13,099 nt of DNA. Source: Candidatus Kariarchaeota archaeon (GTDB lineage: Archaea; Asgardarchaeota; Heimdallarchaeia; Heimdallarchaeales; Kariarchaeaceae). Shown in pieces: positions 477-13,099 of the stretch. Position numbers and translations under genes: made by a program. Where the stretch lies: assembly GCA_016839545.1 (NCBI GenBank), contig JAEOUB010000001.1, positions 1 through 13,099 of the forward strand. Direction: 5' to 3'. The first letter of the stretch is position 1. Each line of letters starts with the position of its first letter. The notes under the pieces are model-generated. The model saw only the letters and a list, made by a program, of their open reading frames with translations, did no database searches and had not been told where the DNA came from.

Positions 477-1898
477 ATGGCAACACTACCACCAGGAATC
501 TTATGGGGTGGAGGCATACTAGCCTTCCTCATATTCACCGTGGCCGTAATAAAGTCACGCTACAGGAAGTTCACAAACCGCGAGTTTGTGCTCTTCTTCA
601 GAAATGGTAAGCTCAAAGCACAGGGCTACGGTGGCGGTTACTTTTTACTGCCACTTATAGACGAGATTATTATTCTCAGTACTACCGTCCAGCGGCTCGA
701 AGTCGACGTCGCTGAGAAGATTATCACGCAGGAGAACCAAGACCTCCGCGTGTCGGGCTTTATCATCTACCGCATCGAGGATCCCGTTAAGGCCTACCAG
801 GCAATTAGCGGTACCCAAGACAGATCGGTACTGCATGAGCTCAACAAGACGCTCGAGGATCTGGTAGAGAGTATCATCCGAACCACTGTGGCGTCACTGT
901 CACTTGACCAGGTACTCCGAGAGAGAAGCCTGATCATTGAGGCTATCATGTCAGAGATGGTACCTGTGGTCTCACCCATGGGTATTCAGATCAGTACGGC
1001 CGAGATCCGACACGTTGAGGTACTCGACCAGGGTCTCTTTGAGGACCTCCAGGAAGACTATCGTCAAGAGGCGAGATTGAGGGCCGAACAAACCAAGATC
1101 GAGACACAAAGGGAAGTAGCAAAATCTCGAGCTGAGGCAGACCAGGATATTCGATCCCGTGAACTCCAGAGAGACGATGCTGTTCTGATGGAGCAGCAGA
1201 AAGTCCAGGAGACTGAGGAGAAGAGGCGCAGCGCAATCGAGACCTTGCAGAAAGAGCGAGAGGCAAAGGTTGCTGACCTGGACAAGAAGAAGCTGGAGAT
1301 CGAGGCACAGACCCGGTTGATGGAGATCGAATTCGAGGCTGAGTCCAACAAGCGACGACAGCTCCTTGAGACGATCGACATCCAGGCTGAGCAGAAGAAG
1401 CGAATGGCTGAAGCAGATGCTGAGGCAATCCGTGTCGCAGCCATTGCCCGTAAGGAGGCAGTCGAGCTTGATGCTGAGGCAGAGGCCACCAAGCTGAGGA
1501 CGGTTGCTGAGGCTATGAAGGAGTCCCTCCTGGCAGAGGCAGAGGGTCGCAAGGCTCTCCTGCTTGCTGAGGCTGAGGGTCTTCGTGAGAAGGTAAAAGC
1601 CCAGGGTTACGTCAACGAGTCAATGATTATGCAGGAACTTGTGCGTCAATTACCTCACATCGCCTCATCCATGAAAGTCGGGGACATCAACTGGCTCAAC
1701 ATGGGTGGCGGAGAGAGTGGTGACACACCTCTTGGGATCATCCCCAAGAACCTGACCCAGATCATGGCTCTCTCCAAGAGCTTTGGACTGGACATCGAGG
1801 ATCTTGTGCGGACCATCCGTGGTCAGTCCAAGAAGAATGGCAACAATGGCATCGAGGTCATTGAGGCTGTCCAGGACGAAGAGTCGGGGGAATCCTAG
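477..1898 (+). CDS. flotillin-like SPFH/Band-7 domain protein with N-terminal membrane anchor and long EA-rich coiled coil
   Basis: 473 aa. It starts with an N-terminal hydrophobic helix (ILWGGGILAFLIFTVAVI). An SPFH-like region follows (FVLFFRNGKL...GGGYFLLPLIDEIIILSTTVQRLEVDVAEKIITQENQDLRVSGFIIYRIEDP). Then comes about 200 aa of charged heptad-like sequence with AEAEA/EA repeats (AEADAEAIRVAAIARKEAVELDAEAEATKLRTVAEAMKESLLAEAEGRKALLLAEAEGLREK), typical of the flotillin domain. The start is ATG with a good RBS. Confidence 0.88.
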   Translation: MATLPPGILWGGGILAFLIFTVAVIKSRYRKFTNREFVLFFRNGKLKAQGYGGGYFLLPLIDEIIILSTTVQRLEVDVAEKIITQENQDLRVSGFIIYRIEDPVKAYQAISGTQDRSVLHELNKTLEDLVESIIRTTVASLSLDQVLRERSLIIEAIMSEMVPVVSPMGIQISTAEIRHVEVLDQGLFEDLQEDYRQEARLRAEQTKIETQREVAKSRAEADQDIRSRELQRDDAVLMEQQKVQETEEKRRSAIETLQKEREAKVADLDKKKLEIEAQTRLMEIEFEAESNKRRQLLETIDIQAEQKKRMAEADAEAIRVAAIARKEAVELDAEAEATKLRTVAEAMKESLLAEAEGRKALLLAEAEGLREKVKAQGYVNESMIMQELVRQLPHIASSMKVGDINWLNMGGGESGDTPLGIIPKNLTQIMALSKSFGLDIEDLVRTIRGQSKKNGNNGIEVIEAVQDEESGES

Positions 1899-1927
1899 GC
1901 CCAGTAGTCTACAGTCATGACCAGCTC

Positions 1928-2218
1928 ATGGCTGCAGTGGCAGTCTATGACAGCCACGGAGACCTGCTGGGGTTCGATGTGGATGGAGACGGCGATGCCG
2001 ACTTCACCATGCCCCAAGGCCTGTCTCTGATCGTGGACGACGATGGCTACATCGAGGGATTTGATCTCTCCGGTGATGGCACTGTCGACTACGCCATTGA
2101 CACCTTCAGCTCTCTGGCTGCTATCGACCTGAAGGGAGATGTGATCATCGATGGTCTCTCTCTGGATGGTCAGGCAGACATTGATATCAACCTGCGAGAT
2201 GTGGCACAGCTCTTCTGA
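1928..2218 (+). CDS. small acidic Asp/Gly-rich protein with repeated DxDGDG / DxSGDG (EF-hand/dockerin-like Ca-binding loop) motifs
   Basis: 96 aa, lying 30 nt downstream of flotillin on the same strand. Motifs are DVDGDGDADF, DLSGDGTVDYAID and DGLSLDGQADID. A hairpin plus T7 terminator lies about 90 nt downstream. There is no obvious RBS. An antisense ORF (1895..2284) overlaps it, so coding status is moderately uncertain. Confidence 0.45.
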   Translation: MAAVAVYDSHGDLLGFDVDGDGDADFTMPQGLSLIVDDDGYIEGFDLSGDGTVDYAIDTFSSLAAIDLKGDVIIDGLSLDGQADIDINLRDVAQLF

Positions 2219-2310
2219 GCACGGCTCACTTGGGGAATACTCTCCTGAGCACGGCTCTCCTGAGTACTGACACTGATCAACCATACACCATACTCGTAGA
2301 ACCTAGTTGG

Positions 2311-2333
2311 CGGGGGGAGACCCCCGTTTTTTT
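2311..2333 (+). terminator. intrinsic-type terminator: 6-bp GC stem (CGGGGG/CCCCCG), 4-nt loop GAGA, followed by TTTTTTT
   Basis: cggggggagacccccgttttttt was read directly. It lies at the end of the flotillin/acidic-protein transcription unit and immediately before the next promoter. Confidence 0.55.
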
Positions 2334-2365
2334 ATGCGCACCTCTGTTGAATTCGTCTCACATTG

Positions 2366-2373
2366 TTTATATG
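2366..2373 (+). promoter_or_regulatory. TATA-like box TTTATATG about 40 nt upstream of ATG 2414
   Basis: AT-rich octamer at the expected distance for an archaeal promoter that gives a short 5' leader. Confidence 0.35.
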
Positions 2374-2413
2374 CAAATTTCTGTCTATAGGGGTAGTGTC
2401 CAGCCACACGTTC

Positions 2414-3514
2414 ATGCTCTATCTGCAGGTGGTCATTACCACTACCCTGGTAGTTATTCTTGCATACGAGTACAGATCACGCAGGATAGAACCGTTGAAA
2501 TGGATACTGGCAGTGGTCATCACTGCCTTTGCAAGGTCCCTGTTTGATATCGGTGTTGAATTCACTGGCTATGCTGACAAACCCGTGGCTCAGCTGGAAT
2601 TTGCCATCACCGGGCTGGGATTTCTCCTGCTCTACATCTACCTGGAGCTGACACTCTACAACCGCCCCTACTTCAGTCGTTTTACCATCATGCTGACGTT
2701 GTTTGGCAGTTTTCTCGGTCTGCTGCTCTATACGGTGCTGGCAGATACTCTACCCTATCCTGCTCGATGGCCACTACCTGTCGGTCCACAGTCTCCCCGC
2801 TTTTTCGAGTTTCCCTTTGACCTGTTCTCCATTGCAGTCTGGTCACTGGCAGTCTACACCTTCTACCGGATGTACTCGCACGCCATCACAAAAGGGGTGA
2901 GGCAGATCACCCTGACTCTGACCATTGCTGCAGCAATCTTTCTTGTAGTCCAGCTGATTGAGTTCACTGAGTTCTTCTTCATCTATGACAATCCACCAGA
3001 GGCAACAATTGTGGCACTTCCCGGATTTCTCCTCATCGTCTTTGTCTATATCAAGCAGCCAAGTTTCAGCTACTCAAGCCCGGTACGTCTCTACCGTCTG
3101 ATGATATTTCACAAGAATGGTCCCTCTATTCTCAGCCTGACTATAGATCAGAAGTACCGGGAGAGCCAGCATGACCCCACCCTGGTCGGAGGACTGGCCA
3201 GCTCGTTGAATACAGCATACATGGAGATCACCCAGCAGCAGTCAGGCAGTATCCGCAAGCTGACTATGGATCGAGTCACCTTTGTCTTCACCCGGGCAGA
3301 CGATATCTTCACCATCTTGGAGATAGAGAGGTCCACCCATGTGATACGCTCTGCTCTTCGCAGTTTTACCAAAGCATTCTCAGAGCACTTTGCCAGGGAG
3401 ATTGATCGTGCTGGCAAGGGTGTTTTCGAATTTGAGGGCTACGAGGAATTATTCTACCGCTACTTCCCATTTGTTGTAGATATCGAGCAGGACCCTGCCG
3501 AAAATGCTCCTTGA
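2414..3514 (+). CDS. polytopic membrane protein (about 6 to 7 TM helices) with C-terminal cytoplasmic alpha/beta domain (about 140 aa, longin/roadblock-like beta-beta-alpha-beta-beta-beta-alpha pattern)
   Basis: The ORF-track start at 2363 is TTG. The first ATG is at 2414 (MLYLQVVITTTLVVILAY...), which fits the TATA box at 2366. Hydrophobic segments run through about residue 230. The C-terminal soluble region is RLYRLMIFHKNGPSILSLTIDQ...LVGGLASSLNTAYMEI...IRKLTMDRVTFVFTRADDIFTILEIE...HVIRSALRSFTKAFSEHF. No family was recognised with certainty. Confidence 0.7.
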   Translation: MLYLQVVITTTLVVILAYEYRSRRIEPLKWILAVVITAFARSLFDIGVEFTGYADKPVAQLEFAITGLGFLLLYIYLELTLYNRPYFSRFTIMLTLFGSFLGLLLYTVLADTLPYPARWPLPVGPQSPRFFEFPFDLFSIAVWSLAVYTFYRMYSHAITKGVRQITLTLTIAAAIFLVVQLIEFTEFFFIYDNPPEATIVALPGFLLIVFVYIKQPSFSYSSPVRLYRLMIFHKNGPSILSLTIDQKYRESQHDPTLVGGLASSLNTAYMEITQQQSGSIRKLTMDRVTFVFTRADDIFTILEIERSTHVIRSALRSFTKAFSEHFAREIDRAGKGVFEFEGYEELFYRYFPFVVDIEQDPAENAP

Positions 3515-3526
3515 TATCAATGTGAA

Positions 3527-4051
3527 TCAGAATCCCTTGATTTGAACATCTCGTGTGGTACTGTAGGGCAGAGCAATGAGTGCAGATGCCATATCGCCAA
3601 AATGACCACCAAATTGCCACTCCGGATCCAGTATCTGACGCAGGTAGCTCATCTGGTTGCTGTGGGCAAGTATGTGGTGAAGAAGTCGTGAGGCGATATA
3701 CCCCGGTCCTTTCTTTCCATTGATCTCTTCCAGTTGAGAGTCTGTAATTGAGCTGAGGAGATCTCGCATGGTTGCAAATCCCTGCTCAATGATGTCCTCC
3801 ACTGCTGCAAGAGACAGGGGATAACTGACCTCCTTGCAGGTCCAGGGTACTACCTCCCATGGCTTGGGATCTGAGAGGTGAGAGGTCATCCACGCAGTGC
3901 AGTGAATTGCAATCTGACCGATGGTCATCTTGTGCTCAGCAAAGACGTGATTGAGGTGTTCCTCCGAAATCCCCTCAAGAGGTGCCCTCAACCCATTATA
4001 GAAAGTGGGAATGATGGCAAGAAGTGCATCGCAATTGGCTCGTTCACTCAT
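3527..4051 (-). CDS. DinB/YfiT-like (DinB_2 four-helix-bundle, His-triad) family protein
   Basis: 174 aa. The histidines are spaced as in DinB_2 metal-binding proteins (NHVFAEHKMTIGQIAIHCTAW ... HHILAHSNQM). ATG 4051 directly abuts the TAA of the upstream FMN-reductase gene (TAAATG), indicating cotranscription. Confidence 0.5.
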   Translation of the reverse strand: MSERANCDALLAIIPTFYNGLRAPLEGISEEHLNHVFAEHKMTIGQIAIHCTAWMTSHLSDPKPWEVVPWTCKEVSYPLSLAAVEDIIEQGFATMRDLLSSITDSQLEEINGKKGPGYIASRLLHHILAHSNQMSYLRQILDPEWQFGGHFGDMASALIALPYSTTRDVQIKGF

Positions 4052-4657
4052 TTATTCCATCCCCGGGTTCTTTGGTGCAGTCTCCCATTCTTTCATGAAT
4101 TGGTCAATCTGCCTGGAGTTATGGAGTACTGAGAAGCGGGTAACCTGACGTCCCACTGTCCTGATCCTCTCAACCAGTCGCTCATCGGTCAGCTCCTCAC
4201 CTTCAAAATGCGATGAGACATTGGGCAGAGATGCCTGTTCGGGGATGACCCAGGCATGCAGCTGTCTTCCAATTGCTCTCAGTCCATTCAGGGCGTTGAT
4301 TGCTCCGAGGGCACCTCCACCCACACCAACCAGTCCGATCATCTTACCCTCGAATTCTGCAAAGCCCATGAGGTCCAGCATGTTCTTGATCACACCTGAA
4401 AAGCTTCCATGGTACTCTGGAGTGCCAAGAATAACACCCTGGGCACTGGCTATCTTTTCCTTCAATCGGCTCACATCATCAGGCATCTCGTCTCGAGGAA
4501 CCTGAAATGGAAACAGCAGGTGATACTCGGCAAGATCGATGAGCTCAGTCTGTGCTCCCATTTCCCTTGCAGCATCCAGTGCAATCTGAACGACTTTTTT
4601 GGTATAGCTCCCTGATCGTAAACTTCCCACGATTCCGATGATTCTTGGATTGTCCAT
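4052..4657 (-). CDS. NAD(P)H-dependent FMN reductase family flavoprotein (flavodoxin-like fold)
   Basis: The N-terminal RIIGIVGSLRSGSYT motif (LRxGS phosphate-binding loop of the PF03358-type FMN reductases) is present, together with GTPEYHGSFSG and a central GxGGG stretch. The ORF-track start at 4669 is a TTG; the first ATG (MDNPRIIGIVGS...) is at 4657. Confidence 0.85.
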   Translation of the reverse strand: MDNPRIIGIVGSLRSGSYTKKVVQIALDAAREMGAQTELIDLAEYHLLFPFQVPRDEMPDDVSRLKEKIASAQGVILGTPEYHGSFSGVIKNMLDLMGFAEFEGKMIGLVGVGGGALGAINALNGLRAIGRQLHAWVIPEQASLPNVSSHFEGEELTDERLVERIRTVGRQVTRFSVLHNSRQIDQFMKEWETAPKNPGME

Positions 4658-4703
4658 CACTATGCTCAAGCTAGGAGTGTGATTGATAGAGGTTATGGTC
4701 TAT

Positions 4704-6848
4704 TTACTTGATCTTGCTACCGGTGTCAACATCTTTGAACGGGGTGAGGAATGATACAGTCTTACCATCCTCTGCTGCCAGTAGCATCCCCTCGGACTTG
4801 ATCCCCCGCAACTTGGCAGGCTTGAGATTATCAACAATGATTATAGTCTGCCCTTCCAGCTCCTCAGGTTGATAGAACTCGCGGATACCGGCAACAATAG
4901 TCCGGTCATCACGCTCTCCATCATCCACAGTGAGTACCATCAGCTTGTCAGCTTTGGGGTGGGGTTCGGCCTTGAGTACTTTGACAGCCTTGAGCTTGAC
5001 CTTCTCAAAGTCATCGTAATCAATATACTTTGACTTCTTGCCCTCTTTCTCCTTGGAATCTTCATTGTTCTTGGATTTCTTCTCTTTCTTTTCTTTCTTC
5101 GATTTAGATTTCTTCGATTTCTTGGACTTCTCTTCTTTTGATTCAGATGATCCGAAGCGTTCCTTCAGTTTCTCGATATCCTTGTTGGGTATCTTCTCAA
5201 AGAGATTTCCTTTCAATTCAGGTACAGAGGTACCAGCCAGTGAACTGAAATCGAGGAGATCATCCCACTTTATCTCATGTACATCTTCAGGTTGCAATCC
5301 AATCGACTCGAATACTCTCTGCGATGTGTGAGGTGCAAACGGTGCCAGCAAGATGGCGCTGAGACGCAGTCCATGAGCTAGAGTAGCCACAGTCGTGGCA
5401 GTGTCTGCCTTGGTTGCCTCTTCTTTCACAGTTGCCCAGGGCTGCTTGTCCTGGAAGTATCGGTTCAATTCCTGCCAGATTGCTCTCAATGCCTTCAGTG
5501 GCTTTTGAAACTCGACCTTGCTGAACTCGGTATCATACTCTGTCACCAGTTCTGCAATTCTGGTCTGCAATTCCTCCTCTCTGTCACCCGGGACACCTTC
5601 AGGAATGGTATCATCAAAATGACGTGACACAAAGGTTGAGAACCGATTGACAAGATTGCCCAGCAGGTTATTCAGATCATTGTTCACTGCATTCTGAAAA
5701 CCATCCCACTGGAAATCTGTATCCTGTCTTTCAGGAGAGATTAACATCAGGTAATACCTCCAGTAGTCTGCAGGATACAGCTCAAGTGCCTGATCGGTAA
5801 AGATACCTCTATTTTGTGAGCTGGAGAATTTTCCTCCTTCATATGTTAGCCACTGTGATCCCTTGATGAAATTGGTCAGGTTGTAGGGTTTGTCATTATT
5901 GTCATTGAATCCCAGCATTGTACCTGGAAAGGTGATAGCGTGGAAGGGGACATTGTCAATTCCGATGAACTGGTAATAGTCAGTGTTGGTATCATGCCAG
6001 AAGGCATCAAACAGCTCTGGTTTCTTAACTATCTTGTCGGCCCACTTCTTGGTAATCGAGATATATCCGATCGGTGCGTCAAACCAGACGTAGAATACCT
6101 TGTCATCATGACCCTCAATTGGTAGATCGATTCCCCAACTTAGGTTACGAGTGATAGCTCTAGCTTGCAGACCCTCGTTCAACCACTTCTTCGCAATTGA
6201 GATTGAGGTCTGTGGCCATCCAGTCTGTGTATCAATCCATTCCTTGATCTTTGGCTCCAATGCAGGAAGATCAATATAGAAATGAGTGACATCGCGTTTC
6301 TCAAGGTTTTCACTTCCAGAAATTGCTGATCTTGGATTGATGAGATCTTGAGGATCAAGCAGGGTCGTACAGTTCTCACACTGGTCTCCCCTGGCACGGT
6401 CATACTCACAGTGAGGGCAGGTGCCGATGACATATCTGTCAGGAAGGTATCGCTCATCATCAAGGCTGTAGAGCTGAACGTCAGTCTTTTCCAGAATATA
6501 CCCATTCTCTTGGAGCTTTAGGAAAATATCTTGGGTGATATCATGGTTTTCCTGGTCGTGTGTCCTTCCAAAGTAATCAAAGCCAATACCGAATTCATCG
6601 TATATCCTCTTCTGTGTCTCATACATCTCATCACAGAACTCAGCAACATCCTTACCAGCTTCATGTGCTGACAGTTCAGCCGGAGTACCATGATCATCTG
6701 TTCCACAGATATAGATCACGTCTTTGCCCTTGAGCTTGAGATACCGACAATAGACATCTCCTGGTAGGATTGAACCCACCAGATTGCCAAGGTGTTTAAT
6801 TGAGTTAATGTACGGAAGTGCACTTGTGATGATAGTACGGTCGGTCAT
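4704..6848 (-). CDS. metG: methionyl-tRNA synthetase, archaeal/eukaryotic-type, with Zn knuckle, polylysine linker and C-terminal EMAP-II/Trbp111-like tRNA-binding domain
   Basis: A HIGH-region variant is present (ALPYINSIKHLGN), as are the CxxC...CxxC knuckle (CPHCEYDRARGDQCENC) and a KMSKS variant (KFSSSQNRG). The C-terminal OB-fold domain reads LKAVKVLKAEPHPKADKLMVLTVDDGE...GQTIIIVDNLKPAKLRGIKSEGMLLAA. The ORF-track start at 6854 is TTG; ATG 6848 is preceded by AGGTGA (6855-6860) with a 6-nt spacer. Confidence 0.95.
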   Translation of the reverse strand: MTDRTIITSALPYINSIKHLGNLVGSILPGDVYCRYLKLKGKDVIYICGTDDHGTPAELSAHEAGKDVAEFCDEMYETQKRIYDEFGIGFDYFGRTHDQENHDITQDIFLKLQENGYILEKTDVQLYSLDDERYLPDRYVIGTCPHCEYDRARGDQCENCTTLLDPQDLINPRSAISGSENLEKRDVTHFYIDLPALEPKIKEWIDTQTGWPQTSISIAKKWLNEGLQARAITRNLSWGIDLPIEGHDDKVFYVWFDAPIGYISITKKWADKIVKKPELFDAFWHDTNTDYYQFIGIDNVPFHAITFPGTMLGFNDNNDKPYNLTNFIKGSQWLTYEGGKFSSSQNRGIFTDQALELYPADYWRYYLMLISPERQDTDFQWDGFQNAVNNDLNNLLGNLVNRFSTFVSRHFDDTIPEGVPGDREEELQTRIAELVTEYDTEFSKVEFQKPLKALRAIWQELNRYFQDKQPWATVKEEATKADTATTVATLAHGLRLSAILLAPFAPHTSQRVFESIGLQPEDVHEIKWDDLLDFSSLAGTSVPELKGNLFEKIPNKDIEKLKERFGSSESKEEKSKKSKKSKSKKEKKEKKSKNNEDSKEKEGKKSKYIDYDDFEKVKLKAVKVLKAEPHPKADKLMVLTVDDGERDDRTIVAGIREFYQPEELEGQTIIIVDNLKPAKLRGIKSEGMLLAAEDGKTVSFLTPFKDVDTGSKIK
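5035..5160 (-). other. low-complexity polylysine linker within MetRS (ESKEEKSKKSKKSKSKKEKKEKKSKNNEDSKEKEGKKSK), encoded by CTT/TTC-rich repeats
   Basis: Seen directly. It lies between the catalytic/anticodon-binding body and the C-terminal tRNA-binding domain. Confidence 0.8.
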
Positions 6849-6998
6849 TTGCAATCACCTGCTGGGAAGACATAATTTGAATATGGACTAACGTAATTGT
6901 GACATGATAGCTTAAAATTATTAGAAGGCCATTTGGCAGTCACCAGGTAGTCTCATGTTCCTCCTCAACCTCTAATATGGCTACCTATCCTTAAATGT

Positions 6999-7289
6999 TT
7001 AGTTTTTCAATCCTCCACCTGCAGGAGGCAGAATAGTTATCTCATCACCGTCTGAAATACCAATACCGGTCATAGCACCTCGATCAAGTTTTTCCTCATT
7101 CAGGATGTAAATAAAATGATTACTCCACCCCTCAGAAGATTGAAGGTGGGTTTTGAGATCAGGATACCGGTCAACCAGAATATCCAGGGCTTCTCCAACA
7201 GTAGACCCGGTGAGCTCCAGCTCTACACGTCTGTCACCAATAACCTCCCGGATCATTGCAAAACTTCGGATAGTAATTCTAATTGTCAT
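6999..7289 (-). CDS. MoaD/ThiS/SAMP-type small ubiquitin-like protein (beta-grasp) with Gly-Gly followed by a short C-terminal extension (..ILPPAGGGLKN*)
   Basis: It aligns by eye with MoaD: MTIRITIRSFAMIREVIGDRRVELEL corresponds to the MoaD N-terminal strand plus 'FAxxRExxG', and DGDEITILPPAGGG to MoaD 'DGDEVAFFPPVTGG'. The likely start is ATG 7289-7287, directly after GGTG. This overlaps the last 11 nt of the upstream 748-aa gene. The ORF-track start at 7331 would add a 14-aa non-homologous leader. Confidence 0.75.
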   Translation of the reverse strand: MTIRITIRSFAMIREVIGDRRVELELTGSTVGEALDILVDRYPDLKTHLQSSEGWSNHFIYILNEEKLDRGAMTGIGISDGDEITILPPAGGGLKN

Positions 7290-9525
7290 CACCTTTAATC
7301 TCAAAGTATTGGAGCAGACTGTCGAGATCAAGTTCTACCATTTTACCAGAGAGATCCACGTTGAATGGGATGACTGAAACTGCTGCATTATACTGTCTTG
7401 GATTTGAGAAAAGAGGTATACGAAGAGTATTTCCTGTATGCTCTCCAATATGTGTGTAGATGTGACCTGTTGGTTCTGATGCATGATAGAACTGATCTGC
7501 CAGGGTGTAGAATTTGATACCATCAATTCCACTCTCAATAATAAGTTCCATATTCTGCGCCAGTTCAAAGAAGCCTATCAGGATCTCATCACCTATCATA
7601 CCTGTAGTCTCCTGTTTTTGGTTAATAAACTTGAGTTCAATTGATTTCATACTCTTGTTCAGGGCTTCGATTGTCATTCTCTGGGCGATATCCCAGTCTT
7701 TTACCATGGAGCGATACTCATCTGCAAGGTACTCAGTGGTGATATCGTCTTCACTAATCCCGATAAGATCCATTTGGCTCCTAAACACTGACGCCATGTA
7801 CTGGAAGTTGATATATTCCACAAAAGCAAGAGCGTGTTGATTCCTCTCATAGTATGCCTGAATGATGTGTACGTGAATGATTGAAATAATTGGCGAGATT
7901 ATCAGCAAAAAGTCCTGGTAAACTGTAGTGCCATTCTGAAAGATCTCCAACCAGCTGACCAGGTAAAAGAACAGTTGTTCAAGCAGATGGATGGGCAGAG
8001 ATCCTGTCCGGTTGTAGACCTTCTTCACAAGGTCCATAATCTCACTTGCCATAATGATAAATTCACGTTCGAAGGTAGATGAATTCACAATGGACCCGGT
8101 TTTTCCAGATTCTTCTTGAATTCGCTCTACAAGCTCAGTAATAGGTGTCCAATCTGCAAGTAGTTCCAAGTGCTTGAGAAAGAGATTGTTCTCAATGCTA
8201 TTTGGTTTCAGTTCAGTCAGTTTTGCAATGAAGGAAAATTCTTCCCAGGTATTCCTGCTCCGCTGTAACAGAACCATCCCATGATAGGAGTTTTGTATGA
8301 TTTCAATTAATGTCCTGCAGGCTTTTCTGAATTCAGGTTCTTTCTTCGATCTTATCTCAAGATATTCAACAAGCACTGCATCAGCAGGTTTGTCTTCCTC
8401 TAACAGTGATATTGCTCCTTTATACAAAATTGAGGAAAGTTGGTACAGGAGTTCTGTTATCTCGGCTTTCTCTGACGACTCCATCAACTCAAGCATGTAC
8501 TCTCTAAGAAGCTGTTCCATTGCAGAGAAACCGTTCCAAAGGTATACCTTCAGCAGATAGTCCGTATCAGATTTCAAGATATTGTCAAACAATTCTTCCA
8601 GCGAGATGTCATCGAAAGTGAAGTAGCTGGCAAGCAACCTCATTACAAGCTGTCTATTGTGAACAAAAGAGATATTGTACTTGTAATATTCCAAACCAAT
8701 TTTCGCAAAGATAATCGCGACGAGGTATCTATACGATTTAAGTTCTAGATCTGAGTACTTGTGCTCGAGATCAATCCATATTCGGCTTGTTAGATCGAAC
8801 ACCTCCCCTATCCTGTCATAACCCAGAGTTACCAATCCTCTTGTCAACAGAGTCAGCAAAATCACCCTCTTGGATGGATTATCCTGTGCTTCCTTTAGTT
8901 CTGACTCAAAGATATTGAGAAGGACAACGAGAATGGGTTCATATTTCTGGAAGCGGCCAAGGTCGTCTCGACGCAGATCAATCAGGTCTTCGAATAATAA
9001 CCATAGATCTCTCATTTTCCAAAATTTGTAATCATTTGTCAGATTTTCCAGTATCCTCCCTCTTGCAATAGAAAGCACAGGTGACTGTTCCACAAATTGA
9101 CGGATAAGCTCAGAATGATACCCAGTAGTTTCCCATTTGATGAGCCCTGAGAATAGAATTTTGACCTCTTCAACAAATAGGAGCTCAACCTTTTCCCATC
9201 CTGCCAGTCCTGCATGCCTTGACAGCATAACCAGATATTTATCAACCACTCCCCAGCCAATTTTATCCCTGTTGATTACCAATATATGTCGACAGAAATC
9301 AGATATTTGATCTTCGTCGAGTCTTTCCAGCTCCTTTTGCAAACCATGTCCATCTAGAATATACTCTAGGTTGGGACGTCTCTCATTCATGAGTGCATCA
9401 AGGATCTGCACAAATTTAGAGGAGTGAAGTAGACCCGTAGTCGGATAATTATAAGGGTCAGGAGGCTCTTGTGCTAGATATTCCATACTGGGCAGAGTGA
9501 AGAACCCGACAGGAATATCGTCCAT
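7279..9525 (-). CDS. large (748 aa) predominantly alpha-helical protein of unknown function; His-rich C-terminal segment HASEPTGHIYTHIGEHTGN
   Basis: A long uninterrupted ORF with an ATG start. Hydrophobic residues alternate with charged residues in an amphipathic-helix pattern throughout. No P-loop, Rossmann or Cys-cluster motifs were found. The gene is translationally coupled to the downstream ubiquitin-like gene and divergent from the Rab-like GTPase gene. Confidence 0.8.
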   Translation of the reverse strand: MDDIPVGFFTLPSMEYLAQEPPDPYNYPTTGLLHSSKFVQILDALMNERRPNLEYILDGHGLQKELERLDEDQISDFCRHILVINRDKIGWGVVDKYLVMLSRHAGLAGWEKVELLFVEEVKILFSGLIKWETTGYHSELIRQFVEQSPVLSIARGRILENLTNDYKFWKMRDLWLLFEDLIDLRRDDLGRFQKYEPILVVLLNIFESELKEAQDNPSKRVILLTLLTRGLVTLGYDRIGEVFDLTSRIWIDLEHKYSDLELKSYRYLVAIIFAKIGLEYYKYNISFVHNRQLVMRLLASYFTFDDISLEELFDNILKSDTDYLLKVYLWNGFSAMEQLLREYMLELMESSEKAEITELLYQLSSILYKGAISLLEEDKPADAVLVEYLEIRSKKEPEFRKACRTLIEIIQNSYHGMVLLQRSRNTWEEFSFIAKLTELKPNSIENNLFLKHLELLADWTPITELVERIQEESGKTGSIVNSSTFEREFIIMASEIMDLVKKVYNRTGSLPIHLLEQLFFYLVSWLEIFQNGTTVYQDFLLIISPIISIIHVHIIQAYYERNQHALAFVEYINFQYMASVFRSQMDLIGISEDDITTEYLADEYRSMVKDWDIAQRMTIEALNKSMKSIELKFINQKQETTGMIGDEILIGFFELAQNMELIIESGIDGIKFYTLADQFYHASEPTGHIYTHIGEHTGNTLRIPLFSNPRQYNAAVSVIPFNVDLSGKMVELDLDSLLQYFEIKGDDN

Positions 9526-9742
9526 AATATCCTTGGAATGGTATTGGGATATTTCAACATTTTTCTGTCAATTCTAGGATGAGTTGGAAAAACCTAATTT
9601 GATGGTGAATAGGAGGGATTCCAATAATTTATAGCTACAGATTTCCCATACATACATCTAGAGCAATTAATACAAAAAAATGATATGAAATTGACTTGTG
9701 ATAGTAGCTTTTATTTTCTATCATCTCTGAGGAAGATTACCT

Positions 9743-10306
9743 GTGTCAAGCACAAAGAAAACCCGTACAAGTTACAAGGTTGTTTTACTAGGTGATCCAC
9801 GGGTAGGGAAAACAAGTATCAGACGAAGCTATCTTGGTGCAGTATTCGAGCAGGATTACAACGTAACGCTGGGTGCGGATTTTGCTGTCAAACGTCTTCC
9901 TGATAATAACAATGTCTTGCAGATCTGGGATCTTGCCGGCCAAGCTGTCTATAAATCGGTAAGAAGTGGATATTACAAAGGTGCTGAAGGAGCAATCCTA
10001 ATCTACGATATAACACGCCCCGAGACCTTCAAGAATGTCGCAAAATGGCTTGATGAAATGCTATCCGTTTCCGATCAGATGATACCTTTGATACTTGTTG
10101 CCAACAAGATAGATCTGAAAACTGATGGTTCCCCCTTTGTATCACACAAGGACGGGAAGAACTATGCTGATGTGCTTACAAATTGGAGCGGATTCGATGT
10201 TCCCTATATCGAGTCTTCTGCAATGACTGGGGAGAATATCGACAAAATATTCCAGGATCTCATTGGAGAGATTGAAGTTCTGAAAAGCACTGAGCAGGGT
10301 AATTAA
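9743..10306 (+). CDS. Ras-superfamily small GTPase, Rab/Ran-like, lacking C-terminal Cys lipidation motif
   Basis: G1 LLGDPRVGKTS. Switch I / G2 YNVTLGADF (compare Rab TIGVDF and Ran TLGVEV). G3 WDLAGQ. The Rab-like stretch YYKGAEGAILIYDITRPETFKNVAKW is present. G4 VANKIDL (NKxD). G5 ESSAMTGENI (SAK-like). The start is GTG, preceded by GAGGAAG. The stop overlaps the Rad50 stop on the opposite strand. Confidence 0.85.
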   Translation: MSSTKKTRTSYKVVLLGDPRVGKTSIRRSYLGAVFEQDYNVTLGADFAVKRLPDNNNVLQIWDLAGQAVYKSVRSGYYKGAEGAILIYDITRPETFKNVAKWLDEMLSVSDQMIPLILVANKIDLKTDGSPFVSHKDGKNYADVLTNWSGFDVPYIESSAMTGENIDKIFQDLIGEIEVLKSTEQGN

Positions 10307-13086
10307 GGATCCACATAATGCCCACGTATACCATCCACAATTTGTAACCTGATACTATTTTCAGCATTTCTATCAAACTCGACCTTGTGAGTCACCAGAA
10401 GTAGTTGTCCTTTAGAGGCTGTAAATAGTTGTTCTCTATCTATGATCTCCATAAACTCCTCAATACGTTTTTGGTCAAGATGGTTCGTTGGCTCATCAAG
10501 GGTGAGAAAGTTGAGAGGGGCCACAAATTCGGCAAGGGCTAACCTCAGTGCAAGTGCCAGTACTGTTTTCTCCCCACCTGAAAGAGTGTTCTTGTCAATA
10601 CTGTATTGACCATTGTAAAGATGGACATCACCATCATTCTGGAATGCAACCTTGTTAAATCCTTGATTTGGAAGCATCCGTTTCATCATATTGGTGAGAT
10701 ATGATGAAATCTGAGATGCTGTTTTTGAAATCAGAAGCTCAGGAGCGTCTTGCAAAATACTTTCGTATTTTTCGGAAAGATGGTGTAACTTTCTCAATTC
10801 ATCAACTTCATCATTGAGGCGTAACAGGTTAATTTCTTGTTCTTCTGCTTTTTGCAATGTGTTTTTCAATTCCTCAAGTCTCTCATCGATATTCTTGATC
10901 CTCTCTTTCAACCCTCCTAGCATAGATATCGCATCTGCCAGCTCTGTATCCAATTTCTCCAATTCTTTGCCATCAAATTCCTTCTCCAATTCAGCCTTCT
11001 CTTCTTTGTCTTTGGATAACTGCTTTCCGAGTTCTTTCAGTCTCCTTGATATTCTATCCATATCCCTAGCCGAGGGGATAATTATATCATTGAGTGTCTG
11101 GATCTCCTGATTTAGTTTTTTGACCTCATCTCCCTCTTTCTCAAGCGACTTATTCAGTCTTTCAATATCGATTTTTTGGTTTTCATCTGATAGTTTCGCC
11201 ATTCTCTCTTTCATTGACTGTATATTAGCTTCCAGAACTTCGGTTTCTTTTTGTAATTTCTGCAGAGTTTTCTTATCGGTCTCAAGCTTTGATCTCTCCG
11301 TCTTGTATTGATCAACACTTTTCGATTTTAGCTCTTCATAGGCTTTTGATGCCACATTTTTGTCTTTGTCTAGTTTTCCAAGCTCTACTTTGATCTTCTC
11401 TAACTCAGTCTGTTTGGTCTGATTATACTCTAGCGTCTTTACAAATTGGTGGAGTTTGGGCAATTTATCTTCAATTTCTGTAAGTCTGATCTGAAGTTGG
11501 TCAATATTCTCTTTCAAATTGCCGGATTTAGCATTTTGACGACCATTTTCATCCGTCAGGCGATGTATAATATCCTGTTGAGTTCTGAGCAATTCACTTG
11601 TGTCCATTCCCTCGAATGGCCTGCGGCAAATTGGGCAATCATGATCTTCATGTGAGGTAAGCAATTCAATTGTCTGTTGTACTGTATCAATCTCCTTCTT
11701 CGTACTGGCTGATTTCTCTAGCAACTCCTCTCTCGTTGTTTTCAGCTGTTCCAGGGCGATGGTTGTTTTTTCCTTCTCACTCATTGCGGAAGATAGTAGC
11801 TCATTGACATTTGCGATATTTTGGTCAAATACCTTCCGGAATTCCGTCTCGTTTGCCAGTATTTCACCTTCAAGTTTCTCTATCTTCGATTTCAGCTCAA
11901 GATCTGTGCTGACAAATGTCTCATATTTTTCTTTTAATCGGGTTAATTCACTCTCATAATTGGCTATTTTCTCTGTTAACTCCTGTATCTTTGTCTCTCT
12001 TACATTTTCAGTCATCTCTTCCTCTATCTCTTTTGAAGAGCTCTTCTTGGTGTCAAGGTCACTCTTATTCTGAATATGTTCTTTTTCTAGTTTTTCAAGT
12101 TCTTCAGCTCTCTTCTCATAATTCTCTTTGATATTAATGTTGGTGGAAATAGATTTCGTTAATTTCAATAAGCTTGAGCTTTTGGTCTGCAGTAACCTAT
12201 CAGCACCATCTGTATCAATTTTGTCCCATCCAAAGCTGTCACGATAGTTATCAAGTTTTGACGAGTTATCCTTAAGATCAGATGAGAGGTCACTTGTTTC
12301 CTTTTCAGCAGTTGTAATCCTGCTCAGAACAATTTCAATGGTATTCTTTTTCTGTTTTAGAGTTTGAACCCTGGTTTCAAGAGAACTTATCCGTCCTGCC
12401 GTCGCGGTGATTTCTTGCTTGACTGATTCCTGTTTCTTCTCTTGAGCAGTGATGTCTGCTTGTACCTCATTCTTGTCGGTTTTCGTTTCGTCAATAGCAG
12501 CGATTTTGAACTGATTAGATTCAATTTTACTTGCTACAAATTTACCATAGTTTCTCATCACATTTCCAGTTTTCGCAAAGCTCTCCAGTCCTAATATTTT
12601 CCTGACCTGTTTACTGCGCTCTCCAGGTGTATCTCGTAACAGATCAGTTAACTCTCCCTGCCGAGCACACAACGCAGCCTTGAAGGTGTTAGCATCGATA
12701 CCTTCCCCGATGAGGGATTGGATCATCTCCTTAGACGGAGTCACTCCATCTGCTAGTACTTTATCGCTCCCTTTCTCATAGACCTTCCATACATCTGAAC
12801 CTGATGCTCTGATATGGTGTCGGCTGACAAATGTACCTTCAGGGGTTGTAAATGTAAGTTCAATTTTCCCTTTCTCAGCATCTCTTTTTACCAAATCTCC
12901 ATTTGTGAGATTAAGTCCTGTGAGGTAACTATTACCGTACAGACCGAATCCGATTGACGTGATAATCGTTGATTTTCCAGAACCGTTCGGTCCTGAGATC
13001 ACGTTCACACCCTCGTTGAATCTGAACGTTATTTTCTCAAAACACTTGATATCTTCAAGCACTAGTCGTTCAATTCTGAGGTACAT
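10303..13086 (-). CDS. rad50: Rad50 DNA double-strand-break repair ATPase (SMC-like ABC ATPase with long coiled coil and zinc hook)
   Basis: The N-terminal Walker A is FNEGVNVISGPNGSGKSTI. About 600 aa of K/E-rich coiled coil follow, containing the central zinc hook HDCPICRRPF (CPIC codons at about 11625-11636 on the + strand). The C-terminal signature LSGGEKTVLALALRLALAE is present, with Walker B/D-loop LTLDEPTNHLD and H-loop LLVTHK. At 927 aa it matches archaeal Rad50 in length. Confidence 0.95.
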   Translation of the reverse strand: MYLRIERLVLEDIKCFEKITFRFNEGVNVISGPNGSGKSTIITSIGFGLYGNSYLTGLNLTNGDLVKRDAEKGKIELTFTTPEGTFVSRHHIRASGSDVWKVYEKGSDKVLADGVTPSKEMIQSLIGEGIDANTFKAALCARQGELTDLLRDTPGERSKQVRKILGLESFAKTGNVMRNYGKFVASKIESNQFKIAAIDETKTDKNEVQADITAQEKKQESVKQEITATAGRISSLETRVQTLKQKKNTIEIVLSRITTAEKETSDLSSDLKDNSSKLDNYRDSFGWDKIDTDGADRLLQTKSSSLLKLTKSISTNINIKENYEKRAEELEKLEKEHIQNKSDLDTKKSSSKEIEEEMTENVRETKIQELTEKIANYESELTRLKEKYETFVSTDLELKSKIEKLEGEILANETEFRKVFDQNIANVNELLSSAMSEKEKTTIALEQLKTTREELLEKSASTKKEIDTVQQTIELLTSHEDHDCPICRRPFEGMDTSELLRTQQDIIHRLTDENGRQNAKSGNLKENIDQLQIRLTEIEDKLPKLHQFVKTLEYNQTKQTELEKIKVELGKLDKDKNVASKAYEELKSKSVDQYKTERSKLETDKKTLQKLQKETEVLEANIQSMKERMAKLSDENQKIDIERLNKSLEKEGDEVKKLNQEIQTLNDIIIPSARDMDRISRRLKELGKQLSKDKEEKAELEKEFDGKELEKLDTELADAISMLGGLKERIKNIDERLEELKNTLQKAEEQEINLLRLNDEVDELRKLHHLSEKYESILQDAPELLISKTASQISSYLTNMMKRMLPNQGFNKVAFQNDGDVHLYNGQYSIDKNTLSGGEKTVLALALRLALAEFVAPLNFLTLDEPTNHLDQKRIEEFMEIIDREQLFTASKGQLLLVTHKVEFDRNAENSIRLQIVDGIRGHYVDP
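11622..11639 (-). other. Rad50 zinc-hook (CxxC) coding segment at the apex of the coiled coil
   Basis: Reverse complement of gcaaattgggca encodes C-P-I-C; flanking His/Asp (HEDHDCPICRRPFEG). Confidence 0.8.
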
Positions 13087-13099
13087 CTATTCATCCCCC

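Follow-up and report, generated by a model that had tools for sequence, protein, structure and literature searches.

We describe a conserved archaeal gene neighbourhood in which a Rab-like small GTPase gene adjoins a gene for a 748-amino-acid helical protein without annotation, hereafter the orphan, which is in turn followed by a gene for a ubiquitin-like protein (Ubl) of the SAMP1/MoaD type. The stretch analysed, referred to as the window, is 13.1 kb (13,099 nt) of contig sequence from a metagenome-assembled genome (MAG) of Candidatus Kariarchaeaceae (Heimdallarchaeia, Asgard archaea). Our findings tentatively point to the orphan as a lineage-specific helical-hairpin scaffold that would partner the adjoining GTPase and be co-expressed with the Ubl, which may act together with it; we put this interpretation forward as possible rather than probable. 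In all eight core genomes the orphan and the Ubl behave as one unit. In addition, a divergent Rab-like GTPase gene lies immediately upstream of each of two distant orphan paralogues, which are located in unrelated genomic surroundings.

Core and paralogous loci of the orphan

Sixteen non-redundant contexts of the orphan were recovered, and eight core genomes carry the orphan, the Ubl, and methionyl-tRNA synthetase (MetRS) together: the window (L005), L001, L007, L008, L009, L010, L012, and L104. Read in the direction of the orphan, the order GTPase (-), orphan (+), Ubl (+), MetRS (+) is found in the window, L001, L008, L009, and L012, and the L007 sequence ends upstream of the orphan. The GTPase and the orphan share a strand in L010. 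The arrangement in L104 is MetRS (-), orphan (+), Ubl (+), GTPase (-), and Hexapep, with Mre11-Rad50 gone; it can be derived from the L010 layout by inverting the orphan-Ubl pair alone. In L012 (also L013), at 5319-10334, two members of the orphan family, P0025 and P0012, flank the Ubl in tandem between the GTPase and MetRS; they are 28% identical, and the arrangement is a local duplication of the orphan.

MetRS adjoins the cluster in all eight core genomes, behind its own upstream spacer of 144-390 nt, and is counted as context. On the other side, left of the GTPase, Rad50 is present in four of the six genomes readable there, with a reductase-like open reading frame (ORF) in L009 and Hexapep in L104; Rad50 is therefore treated as context and not as part of the unit. 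The genes to the right of MetRS vary by genome and include a flavin mononucleotide (FMN) reductase, an Na/H exchanger, IF-2B, or a class-V aminotransferase. The invariant contiguous set thus comprises the GTPase, the orphan, the Ubl, and MetRS, while orientations and outer neighbours change. Divergence among the core genomes is deep, the mean pairwise identity being 62% (MetRS), 59% (GTPase), 39% (Ubl), 34% (Rad50), and 29% (orphan). The GTPase, orphan, and Ubl genes are neighbours in every related genome with enough sequence, which bears out the linkage expected by an earlier sequence-only reading of this DNA that had proposed a functional unit of the three.

The two paralogues with a GTPase of their own are P0009 and P0024. 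The former, in L011, which belongs to the same MAG as L010, lies in surroundings that include pyruvate-ferredoxin-oxidoreductase genes, and the latter, on the 736-kb contig L102, lies amid pilin-like and fn3 proteins; the GTPase gene is on the opposite strand from the orphan in both. P0009 is followed after 21 nt by a gene (L011 6668-7084, +) for a 138-amino-acid protein in which an acidic extension at the N-terminus precedes a beta-grasp domain of the ubiquitin type. This protein matches Pfam ubiquitin at 4e-4 (below the gathering score), ubiquitin variants in the PDB at 2.6e-4, and archaeal ubiquitin-like proteins at 0.015, and it ends in STAG-NSL without a terminal Gly-Gly. Since L010 and L011 come from the same MAG, the trio is present there twice, and the two copies differ in their beta-grasp protein.

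Across about 183 kb of orphan-centred loci, Ras-family genes occur only beside the orphan or its Ubl, and because they are otherwise absent from these flanks, the two paralogue-GTPase pairs are unlikely to have arisen by chance. A rough estimate for a GTPase beside two of six readable paralogue contexts gives a P of about 0.01-0.03, under an assumption of 2-5% per neighbour and with an assumed genome-wide GTPase density. The association appears specific from the side of the GTPase as well: other Rab-like GTPases (39-52% identity) were examined in 79 metagenome loci, none of which has an orphan, and orphan matches came solely from contigs that were already known.

Several observations weigh against a partnership of the orphan with the GTPase and the Ubl, and some of them fit an alternative in which gene order has been inherited without shared function. 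The GTPase would then be one of many Asgard Rab-like switches, the orphan unrelated in function, and the Ubl an ordinary MoaD/SAMP carrier with a housekeeping role in molybdopterin synthesis, tRNA thiolation, or general sampylation. For instance, a collinear block of at least ten genes is common to L001 and L010 (eIF2beta, an OB-fold gene, a ribophorin-I-like gene, Hexapep, Mre11, Rad50, GTPase, orphan, Ubl, and MetRS); as these include plainly unrelated genes, much of the adjacency can be put down to inherited order. MetRS accompanies the cluster no less constantly than the GTPase does, which together with the block synteny makes neighbourhood conservation alone weak evidence, and the L104 inversion is no test of the unit because flipping the orphan-Ubl pair alone keeps all neighbours. 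A mirror-tree comparison of pairwise identities was null or negative, a result that is uninformative with seven taxa at this divergence.

The paralogues supply further points on the same side. Four of them (P0021, P0029, P0032, and P0014) have no adjacent GTPase or Ubl, and P0015 and P0013, the closest relatives of P0009, have no downstream Ubl. The GTPases of L011 and L102, which share about 55% identity with each other and with L080, fall outside the clade formed by the GTPases of the eight core loci (25 of 40 neighbour-joining bootstraps, or 32 of 40 when one extra member is allowed). The orphan's predicted fold, compared with the PDB, is similar to no domain of a guanine nucleotide exchange factor (GEF), GTPase-activating protein (GAP), or effector. 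The Ubl itself passes the generic MoaD_arch model and its orthologues end in Gly-Gly as a working sulfur carrier does, and archaeal Ubl genes are often located among informational genes (PMC2948915).

Set against inherited order, two paralogues in unrelated contexts again accompany a divergent Rab-like GTPase, a second beta-grasp gene, of the ubiquitin type, follows the L011 paralogue, and in each of the eight core genomes the orphan and Ubl genes overlap or lie very close together. Moreover, the outer neighbours differ in L009, in L104, and beyond MetRS, and the four genes nevertheless stay together. Considering both sides, we regard inherited order without shared function as rather unlikely, and retain the scaffold-GTPase partnership as our preferred interpretation. 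The functional unit of the sequence-only reading accordingly survives in part: the linkage is kept and paralogues come with their own GTPase, while the synteny block, the paralogues without partners, the restriction of the LKN tail of the Ubl to this genome, and the lack of a fold match among solved structures count against it.

Two features of the flanking regions are recorded here in their own right. A gene for a protein of about 670 amino acids occupies the same block position in L001 (2021-4033, -), L010 (1191-3230, -), and L104 (10119-12116, +); the L001 copy matches Pfam Ribophorin_I at 2.6e-8, the L010 copy has no Pfam match, and for the L104 copy none is recorded. Ribophorin_I is a subunit of the eukaryote-type oligosaccharyltransferase. 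Downstream of P0024, at L102 8404-13598 (+), are genes for proteins of 196 and 1382 amino acids, the larger with many fn3 repeats, and both carry putative archaeal pilin-type (class III) signal peptides as judged by eye from their sequences.

Properties of the three proteins

Orphan family: The orphan (NCBI MHA2501995.1) is annotated as a "hypothetical protein," and its start, MDDIPVGF, is also present in the homologue P0002. On its own it gave no match in Pfam, NCBIfam, PADLOC, or PDB sequences, so that no confident assignment to an unrelated family in these resources contradicts the earlier proposal. Similarly, no Pfam family at E up to 1 was common to more than two of 30 members, and the family profile retrieved nothing from PDB sequences at E below 0.35. 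A word-indexed protein search with either the single orphan or a 30-sequence profile returned only P0001 and P0002, the latter a full-length relative at 33% identity, and an exhaustive search with a profile, run against 1.84 billion cluster representatives, yielded 40 family proteins. Most of these are 720-790 amino acids long, with pairwise identities of 15-40%, and all named sources are Heimdallarchaeota/Kariarchaeaceae MAGs. A scan of GTDB retrieved nothing with a two-sequence alignment and four loci with a nine-sequence subset; a metagenome scan using patterns from the orphan produced no match. Several members can occur in one metagenome or MAG, as do P0005 and P0009 in assembly JAOUKW01 and the tandem P0012 and P0025, and single samples hold P0002, P0021, and P0014, or P0001 and P0015. 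Judged from sequence comparison, the orphan is the founder of a small, unannotated Heimdallarchaeia family.

Members share an N-terminal signature, G-x-x-H-x-x-K-F ... G-H ... L-A-D-F-x-R-H ... N ... G-W ... D ... P-x-W-x-L-P, in which the conserved polar residues are H34, H60, D76, H80, N85, and D95, accompanied by W91 and W110. A central block comprises SxTFE (482-486), E-W-L (W525), and LSPIISI (543-549), the consensus continuing as L-S-P-I-I-S-I-C ... A-F-L-x-Y-x-N, and a PFPxIRN-type motif (P704, N708) lies near the C-terminus. Given the conserved polar set, it would be premature to affirm the earlier statement that the protein has no recognisable catalytic motifs. The orphan is acidic and looks soluble, its sole hydrophobic helix being the conserved LSPIISI helix.

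An AlphaFold2 model built from a 30-sequence alignment reached a predicted local distance difference test score (pLDDT) of 82.6 and a predicted template modelling score (pTM) of 0.83, with low confidence past residue 590; a model from two sequences was poor (pLDDT 55.7) and was excluded from the fold search. The model predicts a small N-terminal domain with few strands followed by about 30 helices, arranged in the centre as an array of helical hairpins, and the AlphaFold2 models agree with the earlier description of an all-alpha protein. Foldseek found nothing in the PDB at E up to 1e-3, with TM-scores of at most 0.2, and the only resemblance is to generic toroids and solenoids built of helical hairpins, that to toroids being at 6-10% identity over about 210 of the 748 residues. 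Enzymes with an (alpha/alpha)6 toroid, such as GH76 and N-acylglucosamine 2-epimerase, which are closed 12-helix rings with catalytic acids, were among the classes considered for the orphan. Known regulators and effectors of Rab and Arf GTPases (DENN, TBC, longin/roadblock, Vps9, Sec7, CATCHR, karyopherin/HEAT, and cullin) gave neither a profile nor a fold match. Of the folds that had been suggested for the orphan, namely DENN, TBC, longin, CATCHR, karyopherin, and cullin, the model comparison accordingly recovered nothing beyond generic helical repeats.

Ubiquitin-like protein: The Ubl (NCBI MHA2501996.1) is annotated as a "MoaD/ThiS family protein." The ORF lister placed it at 6999-7331 with a TTG start, and the ATG at 7289 gives the 96-amino-acid form that is also the NCBI call. 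TIGR01687 moaD_arch recognizes it at 63.4 bits (cut-off 49.5) and Pfam ThiS at 43.1 bits (cut-off 22.5; 6.5e-11), while its score for the SAMP1 equivalog NF041918, 49.1 bits, is below the threshold of 60; a profile built from the orthologues matches the structures of MoaD (2m19) and SAMP1 (3po0/2l52). The orphan stop codon (7281-7279) and the Ubl ATG (7289-7287) produce an 11-nt overlap, which suggests translational coupling; the overlap is 14 nt in L001, and gaps of 18-60 nt separate the two genes in L007-L010, L012, and L104. Both the MoaD/SAMP type and the overlap noted earlier are thus upheld, by TIGR01687 and ThiS and by the codon positions, respectively.

The window copy of the Ubl ends in PPAGGG-LKN, encoded by GGA TTG AAA AAC TAA, whereas seven of seven aligned orthologues stop exactly at PPAGGG, and the TTG codon lies, by inference, a single substitution away from a TAG stop. 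The LKN tail is confined to the window genome, so the "precursor" of the sequence-only reading is not a family feature, and we rejected it as such. A Gly-Gly end is functional in MoaD, ThiS, and the SAMPs, and by that analogy its invariance here argues that C-terminal chemistry or docking of the tail matters. No gene for an E1 (MoeB/UbaA), MoaE, or JAMM protein was found in the 13-kb window or the related loci.

These properties bring in a narrower alternative, in which only the orphan and the Ubl are paired: the orphan would dock, process, or accept the SAMP1-like Ubl, or would be the main target of sampylation, and the GTPase would be a bystander. Consistent with it, the two genes are co-directional and overlapping or closely spaced in all eight core genomes, were inverted as a unit in L104, and occur in L012 with the orphan duplicated on both sides of the Ubl; the invariant PPAGGG end, the conserved His/Asp patch of the orphan, and the beta-grasp protein after the L011 paralogue point the same way. 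Less easily accommodated are the absence of a downstream Ubl from most paralogues (P0024, P0021, P0029, P0032, P0014, P0015, and P0013), the lack of E1, MoaE, or JAMM genes in any locus, a toroid resemblance limited to low identity over a minor part of the orphan, and the recurrence of the GTPase with paralogues (two cases) more often than that of the Ubl (one weak case). This pairing without the GTPase has, in our view, a low probability.

Three further observations concern MoaD-like genes and sulfur metabolism. At L044 4696-6740 and L030 760-2771, MoaD-like genes occur no more than 1-2 kb from further Rab-like GTPase genes of the Heimdall type, and neither locus contains the orphan. The L044 copy ends in VAGG and is separated from the GTPase by two ORFs that look like thiamine pyrophosphate (TPP) enzymes from sequence alone; the L030 copy, on the opposite strand, ends in HGG-ST. 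In one genome only, L010, a class-V aminotransferase of the cysteine-desulfurase-like type (14176-15420, +) directly follows MetRS and is a possible sulfur donor for the MoaD-type carrier.

Rab-like GTPase and divergent spacer: The GTPase matches Pfam Ras at 5.1e-41 (140 bits) and Arf much more weakly (1.7e-13). Its best PDB sequence match is the Thorarchaeota Rab 7ezb (3.5e-40), and its top 60 PDB matches are Thor-Rab, Rab11, Rab7, Rab1, and Ypt7, which places it nearer to Rab than to Ran, Arf, or Ras among solved proteins; the class is assigned from these matches and not from a phylogeny with eukaryotic Rabs. The motifs G1 GDPRVGKTS, switch I T42, G3 WDLAGQ with the catalytic Gln, G4 NKIDL, and G5 ESSA are present, and G1-G5 are kept in an alignment of seven orthologues. 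The tail, ...EVLKSTEQGN, lacks the prenylation Cys motif of eukaryotic Rabs, and the orthologues likewise have no Cys in this part. Positions, base composition, and motifs together confirm the earlier description of a Rab-like GTPase divergent from the orphan across a 217-nt AT-rich spacer.

This spacer has 30.9% GC, against 41-44% in the adjoining genes, and holds TATA-like runs, TATAAATTATT on the minus strand near 9632-9622 and TTTTATTTT about 30 nt 5' of the GTG start. We infer that the spacer is a candidate promoter region. The divergent layout itself is not kept: in L010 the GTPase runs in the same direction as the orphan, and in L104 it is convergent. These two layouts leave the shared divergent promoter of the sequence-only reading unsupported.

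Organization of the window

The features of the window are collected in the table below. No tRNA or Rfam family was found in it, and the Pfam matches of MetRS and Rad50 agree with the placement of these flanking housekeeping genes in the earlier reading. A defence-island interpretation was rejected, as none of the three proteins has a PADLOC match and the flanks are housekeeping genes.

Table. Genes and intervals of the 13,099-nt window, with strand and basis of assignment.
Feature	Position	Strand	Basis
SPFH/Band7 gene	477-1898	+	ORF listing and Pfam
383-aa multi-pass membrane protein, no family	2363-3514	+	ORF listing and Pfam
DinB-like	3527-4051	-	ORF listing and Pfam
FMN reductase	4052-4669	-	ORF listing and Pfam
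MetRS with C-terminal tRNA_bind domain	4704-6854	-	Pfam
Ubl, MoaD/SAMP1-type beta-grasp, 96 aa	6999-7289	-	Pfam ThiS, TIGR01687
Overlap of orphan stop and Ubl start, 11 nt	7279-7289	-	Codon positions
Orphan, 748-aa acidic all-alpha protein, ATG start	7279-9525	-	ORF listing
AT-rich divergent intergenic region, 217 nt, 30.9% GC	9526-9742	.	GC computed
Rab-like small GTPase, 187 aa, GTG start	9743-10306	+	Pfam Ras
Rad50	10303-13086	-	Pfam AAA_23 and Rad50_zn_hook

The Rad50 and GTPase genes are convergent and overlap by 4 nt (10303-10306), which leaves no space for terminators, and the same 4-nt overlap occurs in the distant relative L012 (4343-4346). GC content is 50-56% at 500-4500, from Band7 to the FMN reductase, compared with 37-43% at 7000-13099, from the orphan to Rad50. 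Shadow frames within the Band7 gene account for the long "ORFs" at 991-1552 (-). The 383-aa membrane protein has a soluble C-terminal domain and no Pfam, NCBIfam, or PDB sequence match; a roadblock/longin-like identity for that domain was considered, and the PDB sequence search gave it no support. Weak homologues of this protein lie a few kilobases from other Rab-like GTPase genes (L042/L043 at 1e-14; L055 and L077).

Proposed mechanism and significance

In the mechanism that we tentatively favour, the orphan would be a dedicated effector or regulator of the neighbouring Rab-like GTPase and, in the main locus, would be produced together with the SAMP1/MoaD-type Ubl from one transcript. The GTP-bound GTPase would bind the orphan scaffold, and the Gly-Gly tail of the Ubl may dock into that scaffold, or the Ubl may be conjugated to or through it, with the conserved His/Asp patch in the N-terminal region of the orphan as a candidate Ubl site. 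The orphan may serve as a GEF, a GAP, or an effector. A bolder version, which we rate as improbable, is a Heimdallarchaeia three-part switch in which the Rab-like GTPase controls a helical scaffold of new fold that binds, or is modified by, a beta-grasp Ubl. The Ubl of such a switch would be MoaD-type in the main locus and ubiquitin-type in the paralogous locus, and the pair would have been duplicated within genomes.

Asgard archaea encode dozens of Ras-superfamily GTPases whose partners are almost unknown. Most genes for Asgard eukaryotic signature proteins lie outside conserved neighbourhoods (bioRxiv 10.1101/2020.10.19.343400), and in MK-D1 the GTPase genes do not, as a rule, share an operon with a candidate regulator (Tran et al. 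2024, PMC10933270), which makes it difficult to pair an Asgard GTPase with its GEF, GAP, or effector from gene layout. Unlike the MK-D1 GTPases, the one described here has a conserved neighbour; like the Thorarchaeota Rab (7ezb; Tran et al. 2024, PMC10933270), its best solved relative, it is Rab-like, of Asgard origin, and lacks prenylation cysteines. The closest parallel described so far is an Asgard operon combining a LAMTOR1-like (roadblock) protein, a Rab-like GTPase, and a DENN-domain protein (Liu et al., bioRxiv 10.1101/2020.10.19.343400). As in that operon, interpreted as a GTPase with its regulator, a Rab-like GTPase gene is kept beside a larger non-GTPase gene; the partner here, however, is not a DENN, longin, or roadblock protein. 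Among eukaryotes, small-GTPase partners built from helical repeats include karyopherins with Ran, TBCD with Arl2, and scaffolds of the TTC7/Ypp1 type.

The Ubl resembles Haloferax volcanii SAMP1 and archaeal MoaD (TIGR01687; 3po0, 2l52, 2m19) in being a beta-grasp protein of the MoaD family whose orthologues end in Gly-Gly. It differs in that the window copy falls below the SAMP1 cut-off and carries a three-residue tail, no E1, MoaE, or JAMM gene is nearby, and its constant partner is a helical protein of 750 amino acids. In the archaeal Ubl survey of Makarova and Koonin, the neighbours of Ubl genes are tRNA-modification and informational genes, and no association with a GTPase or a large helical protein is listed (PMC2948915). 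Our literature search, whose coverage was incomplete so that absence is no proof, found no publication on the orphan family or the trio.

The locus offers a concrete, conserved candidate pair of a GTPase and its partner, with paralogous copies, and the orphan defines a protein family without annotation or a structural relative in our comparison with the PDB. As the family is confined to a narrow group of Heimdallarchaeia and the searches turned up no homologue in eukaryotes, it may be an innovation of this lineage and not a precursor of eukaryotic machinery. If the link to the Ubl is true, the locus would join small GTPases and ubiquitin-like modifiers, both of which are central to eukaryotic cell organization. 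Should the three-part switch hold, it would couple prokaryotic small-GTPase signalling to Ubl chemistry, and the scaffold would represent a new class of regulator or effector.

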